Shown here: positions 4,033 to 15,435 of the stretch, piece after piece
Layout of the letters: every line of letters begins with the position of its first letter
How positions within the stretch are numbered: the first letter of the stretch is position 1
From: Gemmatimonadota bacterium
Lineage (GTDB): Bacteria > Gemmatimonadota > Gemmatimonadetes > Gemmatimonadales > GWC2-71-9
Assembly: GCA_039586365.1 (NCBI GenBank)
Contig: JBDHKN010000009.1
Location: 1-64,000, forward strand
Direction of reading: 5' to 3'
Length of the DNA stretch: 64,000 bases
Notes under the pieces: generated by a model
Database searches by the model: none
What the model was told of the DNA's origin: nothing
What the model saw: only the letters and a program-made list of their open reading frames with translations
Position numbers and translations under genes: made by a program

Positions 4033-4835
4033 AGCGGTCCCAAGACAGACGTGCTGCGTGGACGGCTGGCGCCGTGCTGCTGCTGCTCGCCGTAACGGCG
4101 GCAGCTGCACCGTTACTCACGCCGTACGTGCCCGACGGTATCGATCTCGCGAACCGTCGGGCGGCGCCATCGTTCGCACACCTGTTTGGAACCGACGAGC
4201 TGGGACGCGACGTGTTGACGCGGACTCTTTTCGGAGCACGCATTTCACTCGTCATCGGCCTCCTCGCAGCCGCCGTCACGGCTGTGGTCGGTGTTACGAT
4301 CGGAGCGGTGAGTGGGTATGTGAGGGGTTGGATCGACAACGCGCTGATGAGATTGACGGACGCAATGCTCTCCGTTCCCAGACTTCCCCTGCTCATGATC
4401 GCGGCCGCAATTTTCGAGCCTTCCGTGCCGGCGCTGATCATCCTAATCGGCCTTGCCGGTTGGATGGAGACCGCGAGGATCGTGCGCGCCGAGTTCTTGT
4501 CGCTCAAGGAACAGACGTACGTCGATGCGGCGCGCGCCGTTGGAATGCAGCCAGTGAGGATCGTGGTCCGACACCTGCTTCCCGGTGCGGCACCAGCGGC
4601 GGTGGTTGCTGCGACTCTCGCGGTGGGCAGGGCGATCATGCTCGAGTCGGCAATGAGCTTTTTCGGGGTGGGGATCCAGCCACCCCAACCCAGCCTTGGG
4701 AACATGCTGTACCAGGCCCAAACGTCCATGAGCACTGAGCCTTGGCTCGCGTTCTTTCCGGGTATGTTCATATTCCTGACCGTGCTCACCGTGTACGTAG
4801 TTGGGGCGGATCTTGGGGCGAGGGAGTTGCGGTGA
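4029..4835 (+). CDS. Oligopeptide ABC transporter permease (OppC/DppC-like)
   Basis: HLFGTDELGRDVLTR, GARISL, YVDAARAVG, RHLLP, ESAMSFFGVG; start placed at ATG 4029, which overlaps the upstream stop (ATGA). Confidence 0.92.
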   Translation: MKRSQDRRAAWTAGAVLLLLAVTAAAAPLLTPYVPDGIDLANRRAAPSFAHLFGTDELGRDVLTRTLFGARISLVIGLLAAAVTAVVGVTIGAVSGYVRGWIDNALMRLTDAMLSVPRLPLLMIAAAIFEPSVPALIILIGLAGWMETARIVRAEFLSLKEQTYVDAARAVGMQPVRIVVRHLLPGAAPAAVVAATLAVGRAIMLESAMSFFGVGIQPPQPSLGNMLYQAQTSMSTEPWLAFFPGMFIFLTVLTVYVVGADLGARELR

Positions 4836-7539: not shown

Positions 7540-9126
7540 ATGGGAAAGGCAGAGGCCAGCGGGCACCGCCCACCGAACCGGTTCTTCGACCGCCTGATCC
7601 GAACGACGGAACGCATCGGGAACTTCCTGCCCCACCCGTTCACTGTATTTGTCATCCTCATTGGTGTGGTGGTGGGGCTTTCCATACTGCTTTCCCAGCT
7701 GGGCGTCTCCGTTTCCTACGTTACCATCGATCCGGCAAGCGGCGCAGAGGTTGCCAACACCGTCCGAGTTTTGAGTCTCGTCCAGAAGTCCATCATTCAG
7801 GCGACGATGCAGGACTTCGTGAACATCTATGCGTCGTTTACCCCAGTGGGTTTCGTCATCATCATGATTCTGGGAGTGAGCGTAGCAGAGCACACGGGGT
7901 TCTTCTCCGCTGTGATCCGCACGGTCGTCCAGAGGACCCCACCAGCGTTGATCACCTTCGTTATTGCGCTGGTGGGGATCTGTGCCAACGTGGCGTCGGA
8001 TGCCGGAATCATCATCGCGCCAACTTTGGGAGGAGCGATCTTCCTGGCGCTGAAACGCCATCCCGTGGCCGGAGTGTGCGCGGGCTACGTGGCGGCTTAC
8101 GGCGGCTTCTCGGCGAACATCTTCCCTGCTGGGACGGACGTCGTATTGGCCGGCATCACTCAGTCGGCGGTGAGCCATTTCGCCGTGGACGCGGCAGTCC
8201 ATCCGCTGATGGACTGGTACTGTATGATGGGATCCACCTTGGTTCTGGCCTCCGTCGTAACCCTCATTACGGAGAAGGTGATCGTCCCCTTCCTCGGTGA
8301 CTACGGTCCTCCCGGAGAAGTGGGGCTCCCGACGCCGGAGCAGTTCCACCTGGAGGCAGAGGAGAAGCGGGGCCTCGTAGCGGCGGCGGTGGTCACGGTG
8401 ACGTTTCTCGGTGTCCTCCTCCTCCTCACGGTTCCAGGCGACGCACTGCTACGCAACGCGGAGGGCAAGCTGCTCCCGAGGTCTCCACTGATCTCGGGGA
8501 TCATCGCCATTCTCTTCATCTACTTCGTCATCGTCGGGATGACGTACGGGATCGCAGCAAGGAGGTTGCACTCCGAGAAGGACGTTCCGAAAATGATGCA
8601 GCGAGGATTGGCTGGGGTGTCCAGTTTCCTCGTGGTCTGCCTGCCTGCTTCCCTGTTCATCCATCTCTTTCAGGAGAGCAACCTGACGGCGGTCATTGCC
8701 GTGCGGGGGGCGGATCTGATCAAGGGACTGGATATCGGCATGATCCCGACCATCTTGTTGTTCGCTCTCTTTTGTGCGGTCATGAACGTGTTCATCACCA
8801 GCGGCTTCACTAAGTGGCTGATCCTTGCTCCCATCTTCATCCCCCTGTTCTATCAATTGGGTGTGAGCCCAGCAACGGCGCAGATGGCGTACCGGATCGG
8901 CGATTCCACCACGAACATCATCTCGCCGGTATCCGCGTACCTGCCGTTCCTCCTTGGTTTGTTGGAGAAGTACCGCAGCGAAGGTCAGGATGTCGGTATC
9001 GGGTCGGCCATGTCGCTGATGCTGCCCTACTCAATGACGCTTTCCGTGGTGTGGATTGCCTACCTTGGTGTGTGGCTGATACTGGGACTCGATCCGGGAC
9101 CCGGGGTAACATTGTTCCTGGACTAG
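7540..9126 (+). CDS. abgT: AbgT family transporter (p-aminobenzoyl-glutamate transporter-like)
   Basis: ERIGNFLPHPF, GVSVAEHTG, ASDAG, RHPVAG, GGFSAN, AYRIGDSTTNIISP, MLPYS; multiple TM segments. Confidence 0.92.
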   Translation: MGKAEASGHRPPNRFFDRLIRTTERIGNFLPHPFTVFVILIGVVVGLSILLSQLGVSVSYVTIDPASGAEVANTVRVLSLVQKSIIQATMQDFVNIYASFTPVGFVIIMILGVSVAEHTGFFSAVIRTVVQRTPPALITFVIALVGICANVASDAGIIIAPTLGGAIFLALKRHPVAGVCAGYVAAYGGFSANIFPAGTDVVLAGITQSAVSHFAVDAAVHPLMDWYCMMGSTLVLASVVTLITEKVIVPFLGDYGPPGEVGLPTPEQFHLEAEEKRGLVAAAVVTVTFLGVLLLLTVPGDALLRNAEGKLLPRSPLISGIIAILFIYFVIVGMTYGIAARRLHSEKDVPKMMQRGLAGVSSFLVVCLPASLFIHLFQESNLTAVIAVRGADLIKGLDIGMIPTILLFALFCAVMNVFITSGFTKWLILAPIFIPLFYQLGVSPATAQMAYRIGDSTTNIISPVSAYLPFLLGLLEKYRSEGQDVGIGSAMSLMLPYSMTLSVVWIAYLGVWLILGLDPGPGVTLFLD

Positions 9127-9200
9127 GTGGCCGCCGTGGAGGGTCGCGGAGGTGTGACTATTTGACTGACTCCCTACGATATCGAAGGAGAGACCGTCGT

Positions 9201-10769
9201 ATGAGAGGGATGTTTCCGGTCCTGTTCGGGCTCCATCTGGTCGCTGCTGGGCTCGCTGTTCCTCAGGAGAAGACCGCCCAGGGAACAGAGCACATGGTGA
9301 GTGCGCCGACCGTTGAAGCCCTGCAAGCGGGTTTGTCGATCCTACAACGGGGCGGCAATGCGATCGACGCGGCGGCTGCCACCGCCTTCGCCCTCATGGT
9401 CACCGACCCGGCAATGAGCAGTGTGGGAGGGAGGTCGCAGATCCTGGTACGCCTGAACGACGGGACGTTGGTCGGCTTCGACGGGGCCACGCAGGCACCG
9501 TTGCGCGTGGATCAGCCAGCCAATCTCGGGCATGGGTACAAGACTGTGCCGATTCCGGGTAGCCCGGCTGCCCTGGAGCAGATGGTACGGGAGCACGGAA
9601 CGCTACCTTTGGCAGAGGTGCTCGAACCCGCCGTGCGGCTGGCAGAAGAGGGATTCCCCATCAAGCAGGATCTGCACGACCAGTTCCGAAGGTACGCCGA
9701 GACGCTGCGTCTCTATCCCGGCACGCGGGAGCATTTCTTCAAGTCAGATGGAACTCCCTATTCAGCGGGAGAACTGTTCCGCCAGCCCGCGTTGTCGAAG
9801 ACGTTGCGTATCATTGCCGAGCAAGGCGCGGACGCCCTCTATCGCGGCGAGTTGGCTCGACTGATGGTAGCCGACATGGAGCGGAACGGCGGACTCGTCA
9901 GGCACGACGACCTCGACCGGTATCAGCCACGAGACGGCGAGATCGTTGAGGGTGAGTACCGGGGGCACCGCATCGTGAGTCGAGGGGGCAATTGCGACGG
10001 AGCGTCGGTCGTGGAGATGCTGCAGATCCTCGAGCACTTCGACGTGGGGGAGTATGCCATCGACGATCCGGAGTACATCCACTTAATGGCGCAGGTCCTG
10101 TACCTCGGCAACGCCGACGAGCACGTGCCCGATTGGCAGCAGGTGTCCAAGGCTCTGGCGGCGCGGCGTGTGCGCGAAATCGATTTGCAGACTGCATTGC
10201 CGGTTCCAGTGAGGCCCGGCGGCGGTCTGGACGGCGAGACGAATCACCTCTCCGTGGTCGATGCTACAGGTAACGCAGTGTCGATTACGCAATCCATTGG
10301 ACCGAATTTCGGGTCCAAAGCGGCCAGCCCGGAATTGGGCTTCTTGTACGCGTACAGCTACGACATGAACGACGATCCGATCCCGTACCAGCGCGAGAAG
10401 ACAAGCCAGTCGCCGACCATGGTGTTGCGGGAGGACATGCCATTCATCGTGGTGGGGTCGGCAGGCAGCAGCCGGATTCCAGGTTCCATCATGCGAGCCA
10501 TCGTAAATGTCATCGATCACGGAATGACACTGGGGGAGGCATTGGCCGCGCGGCGCTGGTTCATCTATGAGAACGAACTCCGGATCGAGGTGACAGACCT
10601 TGCGGAATCGACTTTGGGTTCGCTCCGAGACTACGGCTACACGCTGCGTACCTACGACGGATTGGACAGCTACTTCGCCAGCGTCCACGCCGTCATGTTC
10701 GACCGCTCAGCCGGAATTCTGCACGGGGCCGCCGACCCGAGGGACTTTGGAGCGGCCGGAGGGCGCTAG
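9201..10769 (+). CDS. ggt: Gamma-glutamyltransferase family protein, secreted
   Basis: GGNAIDAA, TVPIPG, PAVRLAEEGF, QPALSKTL, nucleophile T in ETNHLSVVD, GAADPR; ATG 9201 with SD GAAGGAG and signal-like N-terminus. Confidence 0.9.
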   Translation: MRGMFPVLFGLHLVAAGLAVPQEKTAQGTEHMVSAPTVEALQAGLSILQRGGNAIDAAAATAFALMVTDPAMSSVGGRSQILVRLNDGTLVGFDGATQAPLRVDQPANLGHGYKTVPIPGSPAALEQMVREHGTLPLAEVLEPAVRLAEEGFPIKQDLHDQFRRYAETLRLYPGTREHFFKSDGTPYSAGELFRQPALSKTLRIIAEQGADALYRGELARLMVADMERNGGLVRHDDLDRYQPRDGEIVEGEYRGHRIVSRGGNCDGASVVEMLQILEHFDVGEYAIDDPEYIHLMAQVLYLGNADEHVPDWQQVSKALAARRVREIDLQTALPVPVRPGGGLDGETNHLSVVDATGNAVSITQSIGPNFGSKAASPELGFLYAYSYDMNDDPIPYQREKTSQSPTMVLREDMPFIVVGSAGSSRIPGSIMRAIVNVIDHGMTLGEALAARRWFIYENELRIEVTDLAESTLGSLRDYGYTLRTYDGLDSYFASVHAVMFDRSAGILHGAADPRDFGAAGGR

Positions 10770-11154
10770 TCACGGGAGCCGTGAGCTCCACGGTCGGCCT
10801 CAGGTCGCAGCCGAGTGGGCCCCCGGCCGAGACGTTTCACGTGCGGCGAGCTAGCTCGGCGTTTGTACCTGTCACGGCTGCTCTCCGCGTCATGCTCGAC
10901 AGTAGCTCGTTCGGGGTCGCTCCGGACCAGTGCACCCGCAAGACCGTCACATTGGCTCCGTCCCTAGCGCCGTGCAGCGGGCCTGACAGTGCCGCACCCA
11001 GACTGGGATACAGAATGAAGAAGCTACGCGAGGTCCTTCAATTGATGTCATCCTTTCTTGCCTTCGAAGCACGACCCAATTGGTATGGCGCTCAATCAAG
11101 ACACACCAAGTCCCGCCACGAGCCTACCAGCCCTTTTCCCAGCGCTAGGCGCAT

Positions 11155-12018
11155 GTGTTAGAGGACACCGATTCGCGATTTAGTGGGGACCTGGGAGTTC
11201 CTGGGGCCCCTTTTCTCCGCAGGCTGCGTCATTTCGCGTGCGGTTCCGGGGTAACAACTGAAGTTGGTGACACCGGATTGTATCATGCTGTGCGGCGATT
11301 CTTTGAGGCGTTCGACGATGAGCGTGAAGACCACCATGTATCTGTCTCGCTGATGCCGATACCCGATGGCTATGCAGTGACACAGCCGGGGGAACGGACT
11401 GTAGTGTGTGACTCAACTTCAGATGCAATAGCCGCTTATGAGTTTGCCGTTACAAACAACCTCCTCAGAGGCTGCGATCACGTTCAGATCCACTCGTCGG
11501 GCTCAGTCCTAAACGACCGAGCCGTTCTGGCTTTGGGGGCATCGGGCGCGGGAAAGTCCAGTCTTGCACTGGCGTGGCTAGCTGCGGGTTACCCCACTCT
11601 GGGAGACGACGTCGTGCATCTCGCTGCCGACGGTCGCGCGCTTCCCTTCAAGCGACTGTTCAAGGTCTCTCCCGAGATGCTGCAACTCGTGGGAATAGAT
11701 CCGGCCACAACGCCATTCTGGAATGCGGAATGCGAAGAGGCATGGTACGATCCCGACGACGCGGCGGGTTGGGCAGACACAGCTCAAGTGGAATTGGTAG
11801 CGCTGTGTCGCAGGCAGGTCGGCGCCCGGCTGTCCGTTCGACCAGTCGATCGCACCGCCGGACTCAATGCTCTCATGCATAGCCTGATGGAGACGTGCCG
11901 CTGTGCAGAGAATAGCCTCGATATTCTGGTGGAGGTCGTCAAGCACGCTCGCGTGGTTGAGGTCACCTTCGAGTCGGCTTTGCCAGCCGCAGCAGCCATC
12001 ACAGAATACCTGCAATGA
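11155..12018 (+). CDS. HprK-related kinase (HPr kinase-like P-loop), RiPP-associated type
   Basis: IHSSGSV...ALGASGAGKSSL (Walker A)...GYPTLGDDVV (HPrK DD signature); exact start uncertain. Confidence 0.85.
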   Translation: MLEDTDSRFSGDLGVPGAPFLRRLRHFACGSGVTTEVGDTGLYHAVRRFFEAFDDEREDHHVSVSLMPIPDGYAVTQPGERTVVCDSTSDAIAAYEFAVTNNLLRGCDHVQIHSSGSVLNDRAVLALGASGAGKSSLALAWLAAGYPTLGDDVVHLAADGRALPFKRLFKVSPEMLQLVGIDPATTPFWNAECEEAWYDPDDAAGWADTAQVELVALCRRQVGARLSVRPVDRTAGLNALMHSLMETCRCAENSLDILVEVVKHARVVEVTFESALPAAAAITEYLQ

Positions 12019-13127
12019 CAGTTGAGGTAGCTCGGTCGTTCGCGCAAATCCTCGCGCGGTCCGCGGCAGAACTCGGGAGCCGGGATCCAGGTGCTGGGAA
12101 CCGGCTGGCCGCGGGCTTCGGGATCCTGGGGTTCCTTGCTCGCAATACCGGCGATGGGCGGGACGAAGCACTGGAGGGCGCCAGACTACTTGCCGGGATT
12201 ATCGAGTCTACGCTGTTCGAAGCGGCGGTTCAGATCTCGCGCGCGCTGTCGGTTGGGACGGTACCGCATTTCTTCGTGAAGGGGATCGCCCTGTCCGGTC
12301 GAGCGTACCGGTCCGGCGACCGAGAAATGGCTGACATCGACCTGCACGTGATGCCTAGCCTGTGGTCCAGAGCAGTCAATATCCTGAGCGATCTGGGCTA
12401 CACATTGCTGCCGCCCGAAGAACAAGACGGACCCGCAGCTCTGCGAGCTGGAGTAGCGCTGCAAAGAGGCTCAGCGGGTTCGGAGATCACCGACATTGCA
12501 GTGGACCTCAGATGGGGCCTGGATCCGGTGAACCGATTGTTGCCACGGCCCGATCTGCCCGTCCCGCAGACTGTCTGGAGAGACCTCGATCGGACAGGAC
12601 CGATACCGGTGCCGTCCGATCACCATCACGCTGCGCTGATCGTTCACCACCTAGTCCATCACGACATGTTGCACGTTCGCGGCCTACTGGATCTAGCGCT
12701 GCTATGGAGTCGACTGTTACCCGAAGGTGGCAGGAAGTTCGAAGACTTGGCGCGCGAACTCGGGGTGCTGCGGGCTTCACGAATGCTGGGAAAGGTGCTG
12801 GTGAAACACTTCGATCTCTCACCGTGCGGACTGGAAGCTCCACCGGACGATGTGAGAAGTCGCAGGGCCCTGGCACTGCTCGAACCAGTACGTTGGTGCT
12901 GCTGGGCCGCGCGCGCCAGTGAGAGCGAGTTTGTGGAGATCACGTGGCTGCGCGTTCGGAGACGGTTACTGTTTCTCGACAGCTTGCGGTCAGTGCCGGC
13001 TCTGGTACAGGACGCGGTGCTTCCGCCCAGGGAGTACCTGCGTTGGCGCTGGCCGTATTCGAGATCGGCGGCCACAGCCTTGGGCCGGCATCTCAGTCGA
13101 GTGATTGCGAAGACTTTCGTGCGCTAG
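12015..13127 (+). CDS. Uncharacterised nucleotidyltransferase (NTP_transf_5-like)
   Basis: FVKGIAL...Y...REMADIDLHV, VDLRW, His-rich HHLVHH, RGLLDLALL; ATGA-coupled to the kinase. Confidence 0.85.
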   Translation: MTVEVARSFAQILARSAAELGSRDPGAGNRLAAGFGILGFLARNTGDGRDEALEGARLLAGIIESTLFEAAVQISRALSVGTVPHFFVKGIALSGRAYRSGDREMADIDLHVMPSLWSRAVNILSDLGYTLLPPEEQDGPAALRAGVALQRGSAGSEITDIAVDLRWGLDPVNRLLPRPDLPVPQTVWRDLDRTGPIPVPSDHHHAALIVHHLVHHDMLHVRGLLDLALLWSRLLPEGGRKFEDLARELGVLRASRMLGKVLVKHFDLSPCGLEAPPDDVRSRRALALLEPVRWCCWAARASESEFVEITWLRVRRRLLFLDSLRSVPALVQDAVLPPREYLRWRWPYSRSAATALGRHLSRVIAKTFVR

Positions 13128-13144
13128 AGTCGCAGGGCTCGTTC

Positions 13145-13173
13145 TTGCCCGGCATGAAGCGGTTTCCTAGTTT
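13145..13173 (+). promoter_or_regulatory. Putative sigma-70-type promoter for a leaderless RRE transcript
   Basis: TTGCCC-N17-TAGTTT ends 5 nt before ATG 13179; no SD in front of that ATG. Confidence 0.4.
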
Positions 13174-13178
13174 GCGGC

Positions 13179-13466
13179 ATGACCTCATCAACCTCTGACG
13201 TGGGTCCCAAGGGCCGTTCTGACGTGGTCTTCCGGCAACTCGATGATGGATGGGTGTTGTTTGACCCACGCGCGACGAAGCTTCATGCTTTGAACCTGTC
13301 CGCGGCGCTCGTGTGGGCGCACTGTGATGGCGGGTACGATGCAGACGGAATTGCCCAGGCACTCGCTGCATCGTTCGACCCGCCGGTTTCCATGTCCCGG
13401 GCCCGACAGGACGTCGACGCAACTCTGAAACGGTTTCGAGCAGCCGGACTCCTCGAGCCGAAGTGA
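13179..13466 (+). CDS. PqqD family protein / stand-alone RiPP recognition element (RRE)
   Basis: 95 aa; VVFRQLDDGWVLFDP...LHALNLSAALVWAHCDG...IAQALAASFD...DVDATLKRFRAAGLL is the classic three-strand/three-helix PqqD pattern. Confidence 0.92.
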   Translation: MTSSTSDVGPKGRSDVVFRQLDDGWVLFDPRATKLHALNLSAALVWAHCDGGYDADGIAQALAASFDPPVSMSRARQDVDATLKRFRAAGLLEPK

Positions 13467-13470
13467 CTTA

Positions 13471-14622
13471 GTGCAGTACTATCGCGATCTCTTGGCCCAG
13501 GTGCCGCGGATAGAGGCGTTCCGTGCGGCGATCCGTCGCGTGGTCCGACCGGACGACCGTGTACTGGAGGTGGGCACCGGATTGGGTACCTACGCCTTTT
13601 TCGCGGCTGACGCGGGCGCCGCGCGCGTGTGGGCGGTGGAAGGGAATGCGGTCGTGCACGTGGCCGAGACGATCGCGCGATTGAACGGTTATGGCGGGAA
13701 GATTGACTTCATGCGAGGCTGGATACCGGAGGTCCAGTTACCCGAGCGTGCCACGGTTCTGATTTTTGAGGATTTCCCGGCCCGGCTGCTGGACAGCAGA
13801 ACCTTCACCTTGCTCAGGAATCTGCATGAGTCATATCTCGAGGCTGGTGCCCGCGTGGTCCCGGCGAAGGCCCAGTTGTTCTTGGCACCAGTTGGTTTCG
13901 CGATGTCCGTTGATCTGCTGGGTGAGGCAGATGACGTAGCGTACGGGATCGACTGGAAACCGAGTCGGGAGTATTGGGCGAATACGCCGCACCATACCGC
14001 CGTACCCGGACACGCCGTAGCTGGCGATCCGGTGGCTATTGGAGAGATCGACTTCGGCCTCCACCCGGATGCTGGGGTCTTGGGCGGCGAGGCCAGCTGG
14101 ATCTGGGACCATGATGTCGTGGTTCATGGCCTGGCCTACTGGTTCGACTTGGATCTTGGTGGAGATCAGCACCTGTCCAACGCACCCGGGGCCGAGCCGG
14201 CTTCTTGGGGCCAACTCCTGCTGTCCATCGACTCACCCATTACGGTAGCTGCGGGGGCGGAACTGCGAGCGGCGGTGGCCTGTGACAACTTCCCAGACGG
14301 TGCGCCTGGCTGGCTCAGGTGGAGTGCCAAGACTGCCGCGATGAGCGGTGGAGGCCACGAGTTCGCAGCGAGGCCGGCATCGTTCGCTGACCTCTACAAC
14401 CAATCACCCGACGCCGTGCCGCGTTTGAGCGCGCAGGGGGAGCTGGAGCTGCAAGTAATGCGGCTCACAGACGGGAAGCGGACAATATGCCAGATTGCAG
14501 AGGAAGTGCGCCGGGTGCAGCCGCGATTGAGAGAGCTCGATGCCCAGCGCCTTGTGGTGCGCATGTTGGCGGGGAAACTTGAACAGCCTGCGTGGCGTGA
14601 TGTTGCCGAGGCAGGAGGTTGA
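13471..14622 (+). CDS. Class I SAM methyltransferase, PRMT-like, with C-terminal PqqD/wHTH-like domain
   Basis: VLEVGTGLG, VWAVE, LPERATVLIFE, YLEAGARVVP, GLAYWFD, SNAP..ASWGQ; C-terminal LTDGKRTICQIAEE. Confidence 0.85.
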   Translation: MQYYRDLLAQVPRIEAFRAAIRRVVRPDDRVLEVGTGLGTYAFFAADAGAARVWAVEGNAVVHVAETIARLNGYGGKIDFMRGWIPEVQLPERATVLIFEDFPARLLDSRTFTLLRNLHESYLEAGARVVPAKAQLFLAPVGFAMSVDLLGEADDVAYGIDWKPSREYWANTPHHTAVPGHAVAGDPVAIGEIDFGLHPDAGVLGGEASWIWDHDVVVHGLAYWFDLDLGGDQHLSNAPGAEPASWGQLLLSIDSPITVAAGAELRAAVACDNFPDGAPGWLRWSAKTAAMSGGGHEFAARPASFADLYNQSPDAVPRLSAQGELELQVMRLTDGKRTICQIAEEVRRVQPRLRELDAQRLVVRMLAGKLEQPAWRDVAEAGG

Positions 14623-14625
14623 GGA

Positions 14626-14889
14626 ATGTCGCAGGAAGATAGACGAGCCTTTCTCAAGAAGCTGGCCAAAGGAACAGTTTACGCCGCTCCGGTGGTGCAT
14701 TCGCTGGCGGCACCGCTCGACCTCGTGGGGCAGGGTAAATCGTCTGAACACAAGCGCGAACGCGGGAGCCGGGCAGCGACGGCGTCCCCCGGCGGGAGCA
14801 GCGTTACTCAGCAGACGGACATCGGTGCTCCGCCGCCGGGGCAGCAACCGCCGCCGGGGCAGCCTAACCGGCCGCCATTCCAGCGATAG
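14626..14889 (+). CDS. Putative RiPP precursor peptide, 87 aa
   Basis: SD GGAGGT at 14614-14619, 3 nt after the MTase stop; leader DRRAFLKK...VYAAPVVHSL; low-complexity S/T/R/P/Q-rich C-terminus. Confidence 0.75.
   Translation: MSQEDRRAFLKKLAKGTVYAAPVVHSLAAPLDLVGQGKSSEHKRERGSRAATASPGGSSVTQQTDIGAPPPGQQPPPGQPNRPPFQR
14830..14863 (+). repeat. Direct repeat CCGCCGCCGGGGCAGC x2 (18-nt period) encoding PPPGQ-Q-PPPGQ
   Basis: Exact 16-nt copies at 14830-14845 and 14848-14863. Confidence 0.85.
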
Positions 14890-15435
14890 TTCCAGGAGCC
14901 CTCGATGGAGTTCTGGGGCTCGCTACAACTTGATATCTGCCGTGCTCCCTCAGCGGGCTGTCGGGCGGGGGGAGTTGCCGGAGGTGCCGCCCGCCATTCC
15001 TGCATGGAAAGCTGAGCCAGCCTGGTTTCTCCCTCGCTTCTGAATTAGTCAGGAAACCAGTCTCCCTTCACGGCGCTCTGCCTGGCCAACTATGGGCCGT
15101 TTGAATCTCGTAGCAATCGGCGGGGCAGGCAGCGTTGGCGACGGGCAGCCAGACTCACGGCGGCTCTCGCAGAACGGGTCTCCGTCGCGGTATTCAGCCG
15201 ATCCATGCCTCGCGTCTTCGCTGGCGTTTGCCGGATCGCATCCCGTGTGTTCCAGGTCACCGCAGAAATCTGCGTCACATACCATCTTGTCGTAGTCGAG
15301 CTGGAGGTGCTGCGGGAGATGGATTCAGGAGAGGATTTGGTGGTTTTGGATCTCGATTGCTCTTGACCAATGGTCGCGAAGCGGATCATATTACCCGCCC
15401 CTTCCTGGCGTTCGTAGCAAAAGGATTTCAAGCAG

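Follow-up and report, generated by a model that had tools for sequence, protein, structure and literature searches.

At the end of a five-gene cassette in a Gemmatimonadota bacterium lies a small gene that very probably encodes the precursor of a RiPP, a peptide made on the ribosome and modified after translation. The gene occupies positions 14626..14889 on the + strand of the window, a stretch of 64,000 nucleotides (contig JBDHKN010000009.1 of assembly GCA_039586365.1) taken from a metagenome-assembled genome of 5.44 Mb in 132 contigs that is 86% complete. It encodes 87 amino acids (aa) followed by a stop codon, and the closest known system to its cassette is the Linear Polyphosphorylated Peptide (LPP) family from Bacillota (Popov et al., Nat Commun 2026;17:6633, PMC13381572). 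The reading preferred here, held at a little better than even confidence, is that the product is an LPP-like linear RiPP, likely polyphosphorylated on serine and then decorated, and that its 35-residue leader (MSQEDRRAFLKKLAKGTVYAAPVVHSLAAPLDLVG) would serve twice, as the dock for a RiPP recognition element (RRE) and then as a signal for export by twin-arginine translocation (Tat).

The precursor gene and its leader

The translation quoted in the original prediction, an earlier reading made from the letters of the window, is an exact match to the 87-aa peptide encoded by 14626..14889. The ATG begins 4 nt past the stop codon of a methyltransferase gene, and an AGGAGG resembling a Shine-Dalgarno sequence lies 10 nt 5′ of the open reading frame (ORF). 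A search of protein collections returned 20 homologs of 66–87 aa from 26 candidates. In an alignment of 21 such sequences the N-terminal 43 residues are almost invariant while the tail is variable, which is the division between conserved leader and variable core that had been expected of a precursor. Residues M1, R6, R7, F9, L13, A14, Y19, A21, P22, V23, S26, A28, A29, P30 and Q36 are invariant in all 21. A leader profile of 46 positions, searched against 1.84 billion representatives, matched 348 proteins at E ≤ 1e-3, 50 of them even at E ≤ 1e-10, and 146 of the best 150 matches are small proteins (≤230 aa).

Could the ORF be merely a chance open frame in GC-rich DNA? Other frames here hold overlapping ORFs of 167 and 147 aa, as such a reading would allow. 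However, the reading frame and ATG start are kept in 22 of 23 related loci, and a purine-rich stretch resembling a ribosome-binding site lies 5′ of the precursor in many of them. Across leader codons 1–35, comparison with the closest locus gives a dS of 1.75 and a dN of 0.06, and the median dN/dS is 0.17 over the 119 of 190 pairs for which it could be computed, dS being saturated in the remainder. With dN/dS far below 1, the 348 profile matches and a distribution of GC over codon positions that follows the pattern of the neighboring genes, the chance reading is already refuted to ordinary standards, its probability being negligible; the ORF is a genuine gene under strong purifying selection. 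A scan of 10700–15300 for promoters and terminators gave nothing exceeding shuffle expectation, and a hairpin 3′ of the ORF is not significant (z −0.9).

The original prediction held that the leader combines a Tat consensus with a motif of the type recognized by RREs, and both are present: a twin-arginine motif, D5-R6-R7-A8-F9-L10-K11 (14638..14658), and a YxxPxV motif of the lasso and LPP type, Y19-A-A-P22-V-V24 (14680..14697). It had also staked this idea on conservation of the two motifs among homologs. In a leader alignment of 24 sequences spanning two phyla, D5, R6, R7 and F9 are each found in 24/24 and L10 in 23/24; P22 is likewise found in 24/24, residue 19 is Tyr in 21 and Phe in three, and residue 24 is Val, Ile or Met throughout. 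Binding of the leader by an RRE through YxxPxV is predicted with good confidence from homology. A comparison of the leader profile with the PDB returned two unrelated chains only (E 0.18 and 0.71), none of them from 9x8z.

The same alignment bears on where the leader would end. The predicted cleavage site lies between G35 and Q36 (14728..14733): the residue at −1 is Gly or Ala in 24/24 leaders, that at −3 is Leu, Val, Ile or Ala in 21/24, and residue 36 is Gln in 15/24. Relatives from Acidimicrobiia read AYA|Q at the corresponding place, in form a textbook signal peptidase I site. Y19, P22 and V24 fall at −17, −14 and −12 relative to Q36, and Tyr −17, Pro −14 and Val −12 is the canonical spacing of lasso peptide leaders. 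A cut at G35/Q36, proposed at the outset, therefore gains support from the lasso-type spacing as well as from the small residue at −1, and remains a prediction from aligned sequences. In the precursor of a Gemmatimonadota lasso cluster (L015; precursor at 4630–4803 of that locus) Y19, P22 and L24 stand at positions identical to those of the window peptide, and RRxFLK is absent.

The cassette and its closest known relative

The five genes lie on the + strand in the order HprK-like kinase, NTP_transf_5 nucleotidyltransferase, PqqD-type RRE, PRMT-fold methyltransferase and precursor, with junctions that overlap or span 4–50 nt. A scan of a genome collection found 24 loci, 20 in Gemmatimonadota, three in Acidimicrobiia/Actinomycetes and one probable chance match (L039, Solibacteraceae), which was set aside for want of both RR and a start codon context. 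The full gene order was recovered by tblastn in 17 of the 20 Gemmatimonadota loci; of the incomplete ones, L020 is cut by a contig end, and L031 and L034 have no match to the nucleotidyltransferase. Upstream flanks vary among loci, and a gene designated orf137 and an SLT-LysM transglycosylase gene lie downstream in 17/20. Of 301 genomes sampled from the phylum, 13 have the leader, 11 of them with strong matches, the two weak ones probably being ordinary Tat signals within longer ORFs. The methyltransferase is on the same contig and directly beside the precursor in 9 of the 11 strong genomes, and a PqqD protein of this family was found in 5/5 leader-bearing genomes tested. The element is patchy: only one (G002) of seven other genomes in the genus of the window has a strong match to the methyltransferase (E 2e-147), and there too the precursor follows it immediately.

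The kinase gene (11155..12018) encodes a 287-aa HprK-like serine kinase, the predicted kinase of the precursor. It matches its families weakly (Hpr_kinase_C, E 8e-4; TIGR04352 HprK_rel_A, E 6e-6), yet its gene keeps this position in 19 of the 20 Gemmatimonadota loci, the exception being the truncated one. The second gene (12015..13127) encodes a 370-aa nucleotidyltransferase (PF14907, 63.7 bits, cut-off 31.2), also found in 17/20 of these loci, and assigned to the LppN/PsmN type through PF14907 rather than by comparison with the LppN sequence. PsmN, a homolog of this enzyme, is needed for placing a hexose on the phosphate in pseudomycoidin.

The third gene (13179..13466) encodes a discrete PqqD-type RRE of 95 aa (PF05402, 51.5 bits). 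Its profile matches the lasso RRE TfuB1 (6jx3, 4.7e-6) and the LPP protein LppB (9x8z_B, 2.1e-5), and in a HMMER alignment LppB N33 and D70 fall on N39, which is invariant in the window family, and D78, which is at least 90% conserved. In the published account of LppB, N33 fixes the kink at the leader Pro and D70 hydrogen-bonds the hydroxyl of the leader Tyr (Popov et al., 2026). The window PqqD also passes TIGR04353 (40.3 bits, cut-off 35), one half of the NCBIfam “HPr-rel-A system” (TIGR04352/TIGR04353), whose name pairs a PqqD protein with an HprK-related kinase; the window kinase, in contrast, reaches 25.5 bits on TIGR04352, far under its cut-off of 200. A full-text literature search found no paper on this NCBIfam system.

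The fourth gene (13471..14622) encodes a 383-aa methyltransferase of the S-adenosylmethionine-dependent PRMT fold (PRMT_C domain) with a C-terminal helical domain. Profile matches to PRMT6 (5.5e-49) and CARM1 (2e-40), together with an AlphaFold2 model (pLDDT 83.8) for which Foldseek returned PRMT6 (E 9e-25, TMt 0.74), identify it on sequence and predicted structure as a true PRMT-family protein. In PRMTs the double-E and THW loops hold the guanidinium group. The window enzyme keeps the first Glu of the double-E loop (E100), the second aligns with Ser or Ala (S109 in the window), and the THW loop reads GSW. With the second Glu and the TH of THW missing, arginine is not established as the acceptor. 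The literature yielded no description of a PRMT-type enzyme that tailors lasso peptides or other RiPPs.

Residues ~305–383 of the methyltransferase (window 14380–14619) form a separate helical domain with a conserved L-T-D-G-x-R-S-I-x-x-I-A, and this domain resembles the helix-turn-helix part of PqqD-like proteins. It was considered as a second RRE and rejected, the match to the winged helix-turn-helix family HTH_47 being weak (E 0.074) and the model showing a helical bundle without β-sheet. In one further protein (P0105, 446 aa) the PRMT-fold methyltransferase reads through into the precursor, placing the leader at residues 376–418. Whether it is natural or an artefact of gene calling, this fusion confirms the adjacency of methyltransferase and precursor in another genome.

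Very recently, LPP precursors and their enzymes were described in Bacillota (Popov et al., 2026). The core genes as published there encode a SipW-like peptidase (LppS), an RRE (LppB), an HprK-like kinase (LppK), a nucleoside triphosphate (NTP) transferase (LppN) and an MsbA-like pump (LppD), and the precursors, 35–200 aa in length, share the leader consensus YxxPxVLxHQxIxFETxxS and vary at the C-terminus (Popov et al., 2026). LppK is reported to add several phosphates to Ser3 of the core, and LppS, a homolog of signal peptidase I, to cleave the leader solely on presentation by LppB; LppN showed no activity in the heterologous system used there, and the paper gives the final structures and function of LPPs as not known (Popov et al., 2026). 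The window cassette shares the HprK-like kinase, the discrete PqqD-type RRE and the NTP transferase, and a macrolactam cyclase is found in neither system. Shared too are the YxxPxV leader, the variable C-terminus, a Ser near the cleavage site and leader removal of the signal peptidase I type, which in the published account is established for LPPs and is here predicted. The cassette differs in having neither a SipW-like LppS nor an MsbA-like LppD, in its extra PRMT-fold methyltransferase and in its hosts, which are Gemmatimonadota and Acidimicrobiia. Its leader bears DRRxFLK, which the published LPP consensus does not contain, and has nothing of the remaining VLxHQxIxFETxxS (Popov et al., 2026). 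Within the text and six supplementary files of the LPP paper, its figures lying outside this scope, there is no mention of Tat, twin-arginine, Gemmatimon*, Acidimicrob or methyltransferase (Popov et al., 2026).

The comparison with LPPs also guides the reading of the core. Its conserved head, Q36-G-K-S39-S40-E-H-K43 (14731..14754), is followed by a variable, Cys-free tail rich in Pro, Gly and Gln (14755..14886). Among 21 close homologs conservation reaches 90% or more at G35, G37, S40, H42 and K43, and the first Ser of the core stands at position 2–5 in 19 of 20 cassette-linked precursors; judged from these alignments, the conserved feature of the core is a Ser at core positions 2–5. By analogy with LPPs, S39/S40 (core position 4/5) is the predicted site of (poly)phosphorylation. 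A recount from Q36 gives 52 residues with six Ser, three Thr, five Arg, two Lys and no Cys, as the original prediction had it, and the PPPGQ unit is indeed duplicated, at residues 69–73 and 75–79 (nt 14830–14844 and 14848–14862). The likeness to a histone tail that was built on this composition does not hold as a feature of the family. KRERGSR and the exact PPPGQ duplication are confined to the window sequence and its nearest relatives, KRERGSR not being conserved even among sequences 85–92% identical, and the 20 cassette-linked cores, which are variable, 30–55 aa long and all Cys-free, include three without Arg and two without Lys. Nor is the kinase likely to be aimed at many Ser and Thr of the tail, as had been supposed, the LPP analogy pointing to one Ser by the cleavage site.

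Leader removal and export

No S24/S26 peptidase, B2/transglutaminase-type protease, asparagine synthetase-type cyclase or ABC exporter was found in the window cassette, in its flanks or in the flanks of four related loci (L017, L029, L033 and L035). The lack of a protease and exporter remarked on in the original prediction is thereby borne out for the cassette and its flanks. AbgT and gamma-glutamyltranspeptidase genes upstream were considered for the two roles and rejected, as they are not conserved beside the cassette. The 651-aa gamma-glutamyltranspeptidase ORF as listed (8814–10769) overlaps the AbgT gene by ~300 nt (window 7540–10769); its Pfam match starts at residue 175, and the true start is probably further downstream.

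A rival explanation is that the gene encodes a lasso peptide precursor, with the genes for its cyclase and B2 protease lying elsewhere in the genome. The lasso-type spacing of Tyr, Pro and Val relative to Q36 accords with this, and E41 would permit a ring from a G35 start. The tailoring enzymes fit as well: four Gemmatimonadota lasso clusters (L015 and L048–L050) have the same PRMT-fold methyltransferase and an HprK-like kinase, and three of the four have the NTP_transf_5 enzyme. These clusters encode a cyclase in 4/4, B1/B2 proteins in 3/4 and an ABC exporter in 2/4, L015 (741–8742 of contig G032:C3) having both B2 and the exporter; L048–L050 represent all three of the genomes examined that have the methyltransferase only, and each is a lasso cluster. 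No copy of a cyclase or B2 protease in a lasso context was found in the genome of the window, which at 86% completeness does not prove absence. Its three Asn_synthase matches (318, 288.6 and 33 bits) lie outside any lasso context, the two strong ones being of housekeeping or exopolysaccharide type and the 33-bit match, on contig C77, not having been examined further. The sole Transglut_core3 match is an ordinary transglutaminase-like protein of 515 aa. No cyclase adjoins the cassette in 20 related loci, as far as can be judged from the tight five-gene order and from the ORFs and Pfam matches of six flanks, no lasso-cyclase query having been run. The leader has no Thr at −2, and the core is long and variable. 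A lasso product is accordingly very improbable.

How, then, might the product leave the cell? In the preferred, LPP-like reading the RRE would bind Y19, P22 and V24 as an added β-strand and present the peptide to the kinase, which would load one or several phosphates on S39/S40. The NTP_transf_5 enzyme would decorate the phosphate and the PRMT-fold enzyme would add methyl groups. Release from the RRE would then expose the twin-arginine leader to TatBC, the small, hydrophilic and disordered cargo would cross the membrane via Tat, and cleavage at LVG|Q by signal peptidase I would make Gln the N-terminal residue.

The machinery for the last steps is encoded in the genome, which has TatC (217.5 bits), TatA (64.7 bits) and, away from the cassette on contigs C95 and C84, its only two signal peptidases I. 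In the precursor leader KKLAK is followed by an uncharged run of 16 residues. The best 14-residue Kyte-Doolittle value of this hydrophobic (h-) region is 1.35, which falls in the lower third of the range of 31 ORFs of the same genome that are 150 aa or longer and have a strict Tat motif (median 1.47; 10/31 at or below 1.35). TIGR01409 matches 13/24 leaders (E ≤ 10, best 0.0019) and TIGR02811 matches 14/24. The only NCBIfam families to match more than one leader are Tat families, TatB_1 and Rieske SoxL2 matching one each. In the ESM Atlas the nearest clusters are unnamed (0.90–0.91) and the nearest with Pfam annotation are all Tat substrates (0.79–0.82), which is a lead only. According to one review, Tat accepts unstructured hydrophilic cargo of up to ~100–120 aa, and the h- and c-regions of its signals are where chaperones of the TorD type bind (PMC6708511).

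The distribution of the motif adds to this. RR is retained alongside different accessory enzymes, including those of Acidimicrobiia that lack a PRMT-type methyltransferase, so its conservation is not tied to the methyltransferase. Where peptidase and exporter are both absent the leader carries RRxFLK, and this comparative pattern, seen in two phyla with differing accessory enzymes, is the strongest argument for Tat routing. The idea of a dual leader, for RRE docking and for Tat, fits these comparative data, and on the aligned sequences Tat routing with cleavage at 35|36 is predicted as modestly favored.

Several observations weigh against Tat routing and the chemistry proposed to precede it. 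The window leader scores 12.6–12.8 bits on TIGR01409, under its cut-off of 16.7, and nine of ten control Tat signals from the same genome pass that cut-off (range 16.1–34.6 bits), the controls having been hand-picked and hence biased towards good signals. Pfam TAT_signal (PF10518) matches 0/24 leaders. RRxFLK is followed by K12, K15 and two invariant Pro, and the c-region bears Asp/Glu and no basic residue. RR is retained in 142 of the 146 small profile matches (RK in three, KR in one), a figure that is partly circular, RR being in the profile. The h-region is far more conserved than is usual for signal peptides, and this over-conservation means that the stretch may exist only for protein binding; it is what an RRE-binding strand, not a signal peptide, would need. 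The phosphorylation site, the hexose and the methyl acceptor are all assigned by analogy.

These points lead to a second reading, in which the precursor is LPP-like but DRRxFLKKLA is an amphipathic helix that docks the kinase, the NTP transferase or the RRE, and the product is processed and exported by unlinked proteins or stays inside the cell. The sub-threshold TIGR01409 score, the missing Pfam match and the unusual conservation of the h-region count in its favor, as does the invariance of L13 and A14 beyond the Tat consensus; the published text on LPPs, moreover, holds that parts of the LppA leader off the RRE are thought to serve enzymes (Popov et al., 2026). However, the segment fits the Tat consensus residue by residue, lies near the N-terminus (RR starts at a median of residue 6 in the small profile matches), and is followed by an uncharged stretch and a −1/−3 site of small residues. 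It is kept with different accessory enzymes in two phyla and is present where there is no dedicated peptidase or exporter; the L015 lasso leader, the sole one read, comes from a cluster that has both and does not contain the segment. No candidate peptidase or exporter is conserved nearby. A docking helix is considered rather unlikely on this evidence.

A third reading is that of an ordinary small periplasmic protein exported by Tat, for example a disordered metal-binding peptide, which the neighboring enzymes do not modify or for which the PqqD protein acts as a signal-peptide chaperone only. Among 141 tails of the wider family 12 are Met-rich and five His-rich, as in periplasmic copper-binding proteins, and one leader-bearing ORF (L051) has no cassette alongside. 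Against this, the five genes are tightly packed with 4-nt or overlapping junctions and their order is kept in 17/20 loci, the leader is found with this triad in a second phylum too, the L051 genome still has a cognate PqqD elsewhere, and the homologous triad of the LPP system is reported to modify its precursor (Popov et al., 2026). This possibility is therefore improbable, if less so than a lasso product.

The L051 ORF (129 aa, G122:C58, 7765–8154, minus strand) combines the same leader with a Cys-rich tail of repeated C..NP.HP.CN; it lies beside MsrA/MsrB-like and sensor-kinase genes, and the cognate PqqD is on contig C10. Elsewhere in the wider family, Cys occurs in 38 of the 141 tails and PPG in 53, and 62 have a C-terminal PW..PP(G), closing with a conserved (A)PW..PPPG(G). 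Examples from P0024–P0172 include MGMGMGM and MMMNMMM, a run of eight His in P0024 and some tails rich in Gly and Lys. These features suggest that metals are bound in the periplasm and that there is a second recognition element at the C-terminus; both Met runs and the Trp of that motif are lacking from the window peptide.

Related systems and wider meaning

Two of the three loci outside Gemmatimonadota are informative about the composition of the system. In the Acidimicrobiia loci L036 and L037 the leader, DRRAFLKKLAIGTAFAAPVVSSF...AYA|QT..., precedes Ser/Thr-rich tails and adjoins genes for PqqD, an HprK-like kinase, NTP_transf_5 and glycosyltransferases. Neither has a PRMT-type methyltransferase, and L037 has in addition a Methyltransf_11 enzyme. 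The occurrence of the same kit in Gemmatimonadota and Acidimicrobiia indicates that what is conserved is leader, RRE, kinase and NTP transferase. The precursor ORFs themselves (L036 8962–9288 and L037 8959–9225) have twin-arginine/F(Y)xxP leaders and Thr/Ser-rich ‘TTTTTSPNQP’ tails, the glycosyltransferases are of the GT1/GT4 and GT2-TPR types, and the clusters look like a phospho-glycopeptide version of the system.

In several Gemmatimonadota loci (L016/L013, L017, L019 and others) an insert of ~4.5 kb lies directly after the precursor and before orf160m; the window does not have it. In L017 it encodes a pyridine-nucleotide-disulphide oxidoreductase, VTT/DedA, DUF547, GT2 and DUF2064 proteins, the first three of which are seen in L013. 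On the other side of the cassette, orf126 (10781–11161, 126 aa) was weighed as a possible sixth gene of the cassette or a concealed B2 protease and rejected. It is of low complexity, has no Pfam or NCBIfam match and no tblastn match in the 24 loci, and by its sequence it looks non-coding.

Besides LPPs, three known systems share parts of this arrangement. Phosphorylated lasso peptides of the paeninodin and pseudomycoidin type have the HprK-like kinase and NTP_transf_5 as a tailoring pair and a [Y/W]xxPx[L/V] leader bound by a discrete RRE, and lasso clusters of Gemmatimonadota have the same PRMT-fold methyltransferase. They differ in that the window cassette lacks a cyclase, a B2 protease and an ABC exporter, which would leave its product linear, and in that its core is long with the conserved Ser N-terminal rather than C-terminal. 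Bufferins and oxazolins, RiPPs modified by MNIO enzymes, are described as using a general-secretion signal in place of a dedicated leader, protease and exporter, and their products as periplasmic and in some cases metal-binding (PMC12452194). Unlike the window system, they are reported to depend on Sec rather than Tat, on MNIO/DUF2063 enzymes and on Cys chemistry, with no PqqD-type RRE motif described in the signal (PMC12452194). Sec-dependent RiPP precursors such as the bufferins have been termed “highly unusual” in the literature. Tat chaperones (redox enzyme maturation proteins, e.g., TorD) bind signal peptides, the role that the RRE would play here, but in the account consulted they have unrelated folds and serve cofactor-containing redox cargo (PMC6708511), in contrast to the winged helix-turn-helix RRE and short modified peptide of the window.

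The kind of system is known from the LPPs described in 2026; new are its occurrence in these hosts, its lack of a peptidase and an exporter, the twin-arginine motif of the leader and the addition of a PRMT-fold enzyme. In the published text LPPs are called restricted to Bacillota and were found via a dedicated signal-peptidase homolog (Popov et al., 2026), and clusters without that enzyme would be invisible to such a search. A full-text search of the literature, with subscription-only papers outside its scope, found no natural Tat-dependent RiPP precursor. It is proposed, tentatively and at somewhat under even confidence, that this is the first natural RiPP family to be exported via Tat. The RRE would act as a Tat proofreading chaperone that masks the h-region until modification is done, the housekeeping Tat system and signal peptidase I would replace a dedicated exporter and protease, and bulky polyphospho-(glyco)-peptides, many of them with Met- or His-rich, metal-binding tails, would in two phyla or more be delivered to the periplasm or to the surface of the cell.

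The locus extends the chemistry of kinase, RRE and NTP transferase to Gemmatimonadota and Acidimicrobiia, in a family of at least 348 sequence clusters. It suggests that a RiPP pathway can forgo its own protease and exporter by merging an RRE-binding motif into a general-secretion signal. If this is true, it would constitute a new export route for natural products of this kind and a natural example of an RRE behaving like a Tat chaperone; predictors of Tat signals could be used to mine for RiPP precursors, and the system would be an easy one to test, since the leader would work with the machinery of the host.

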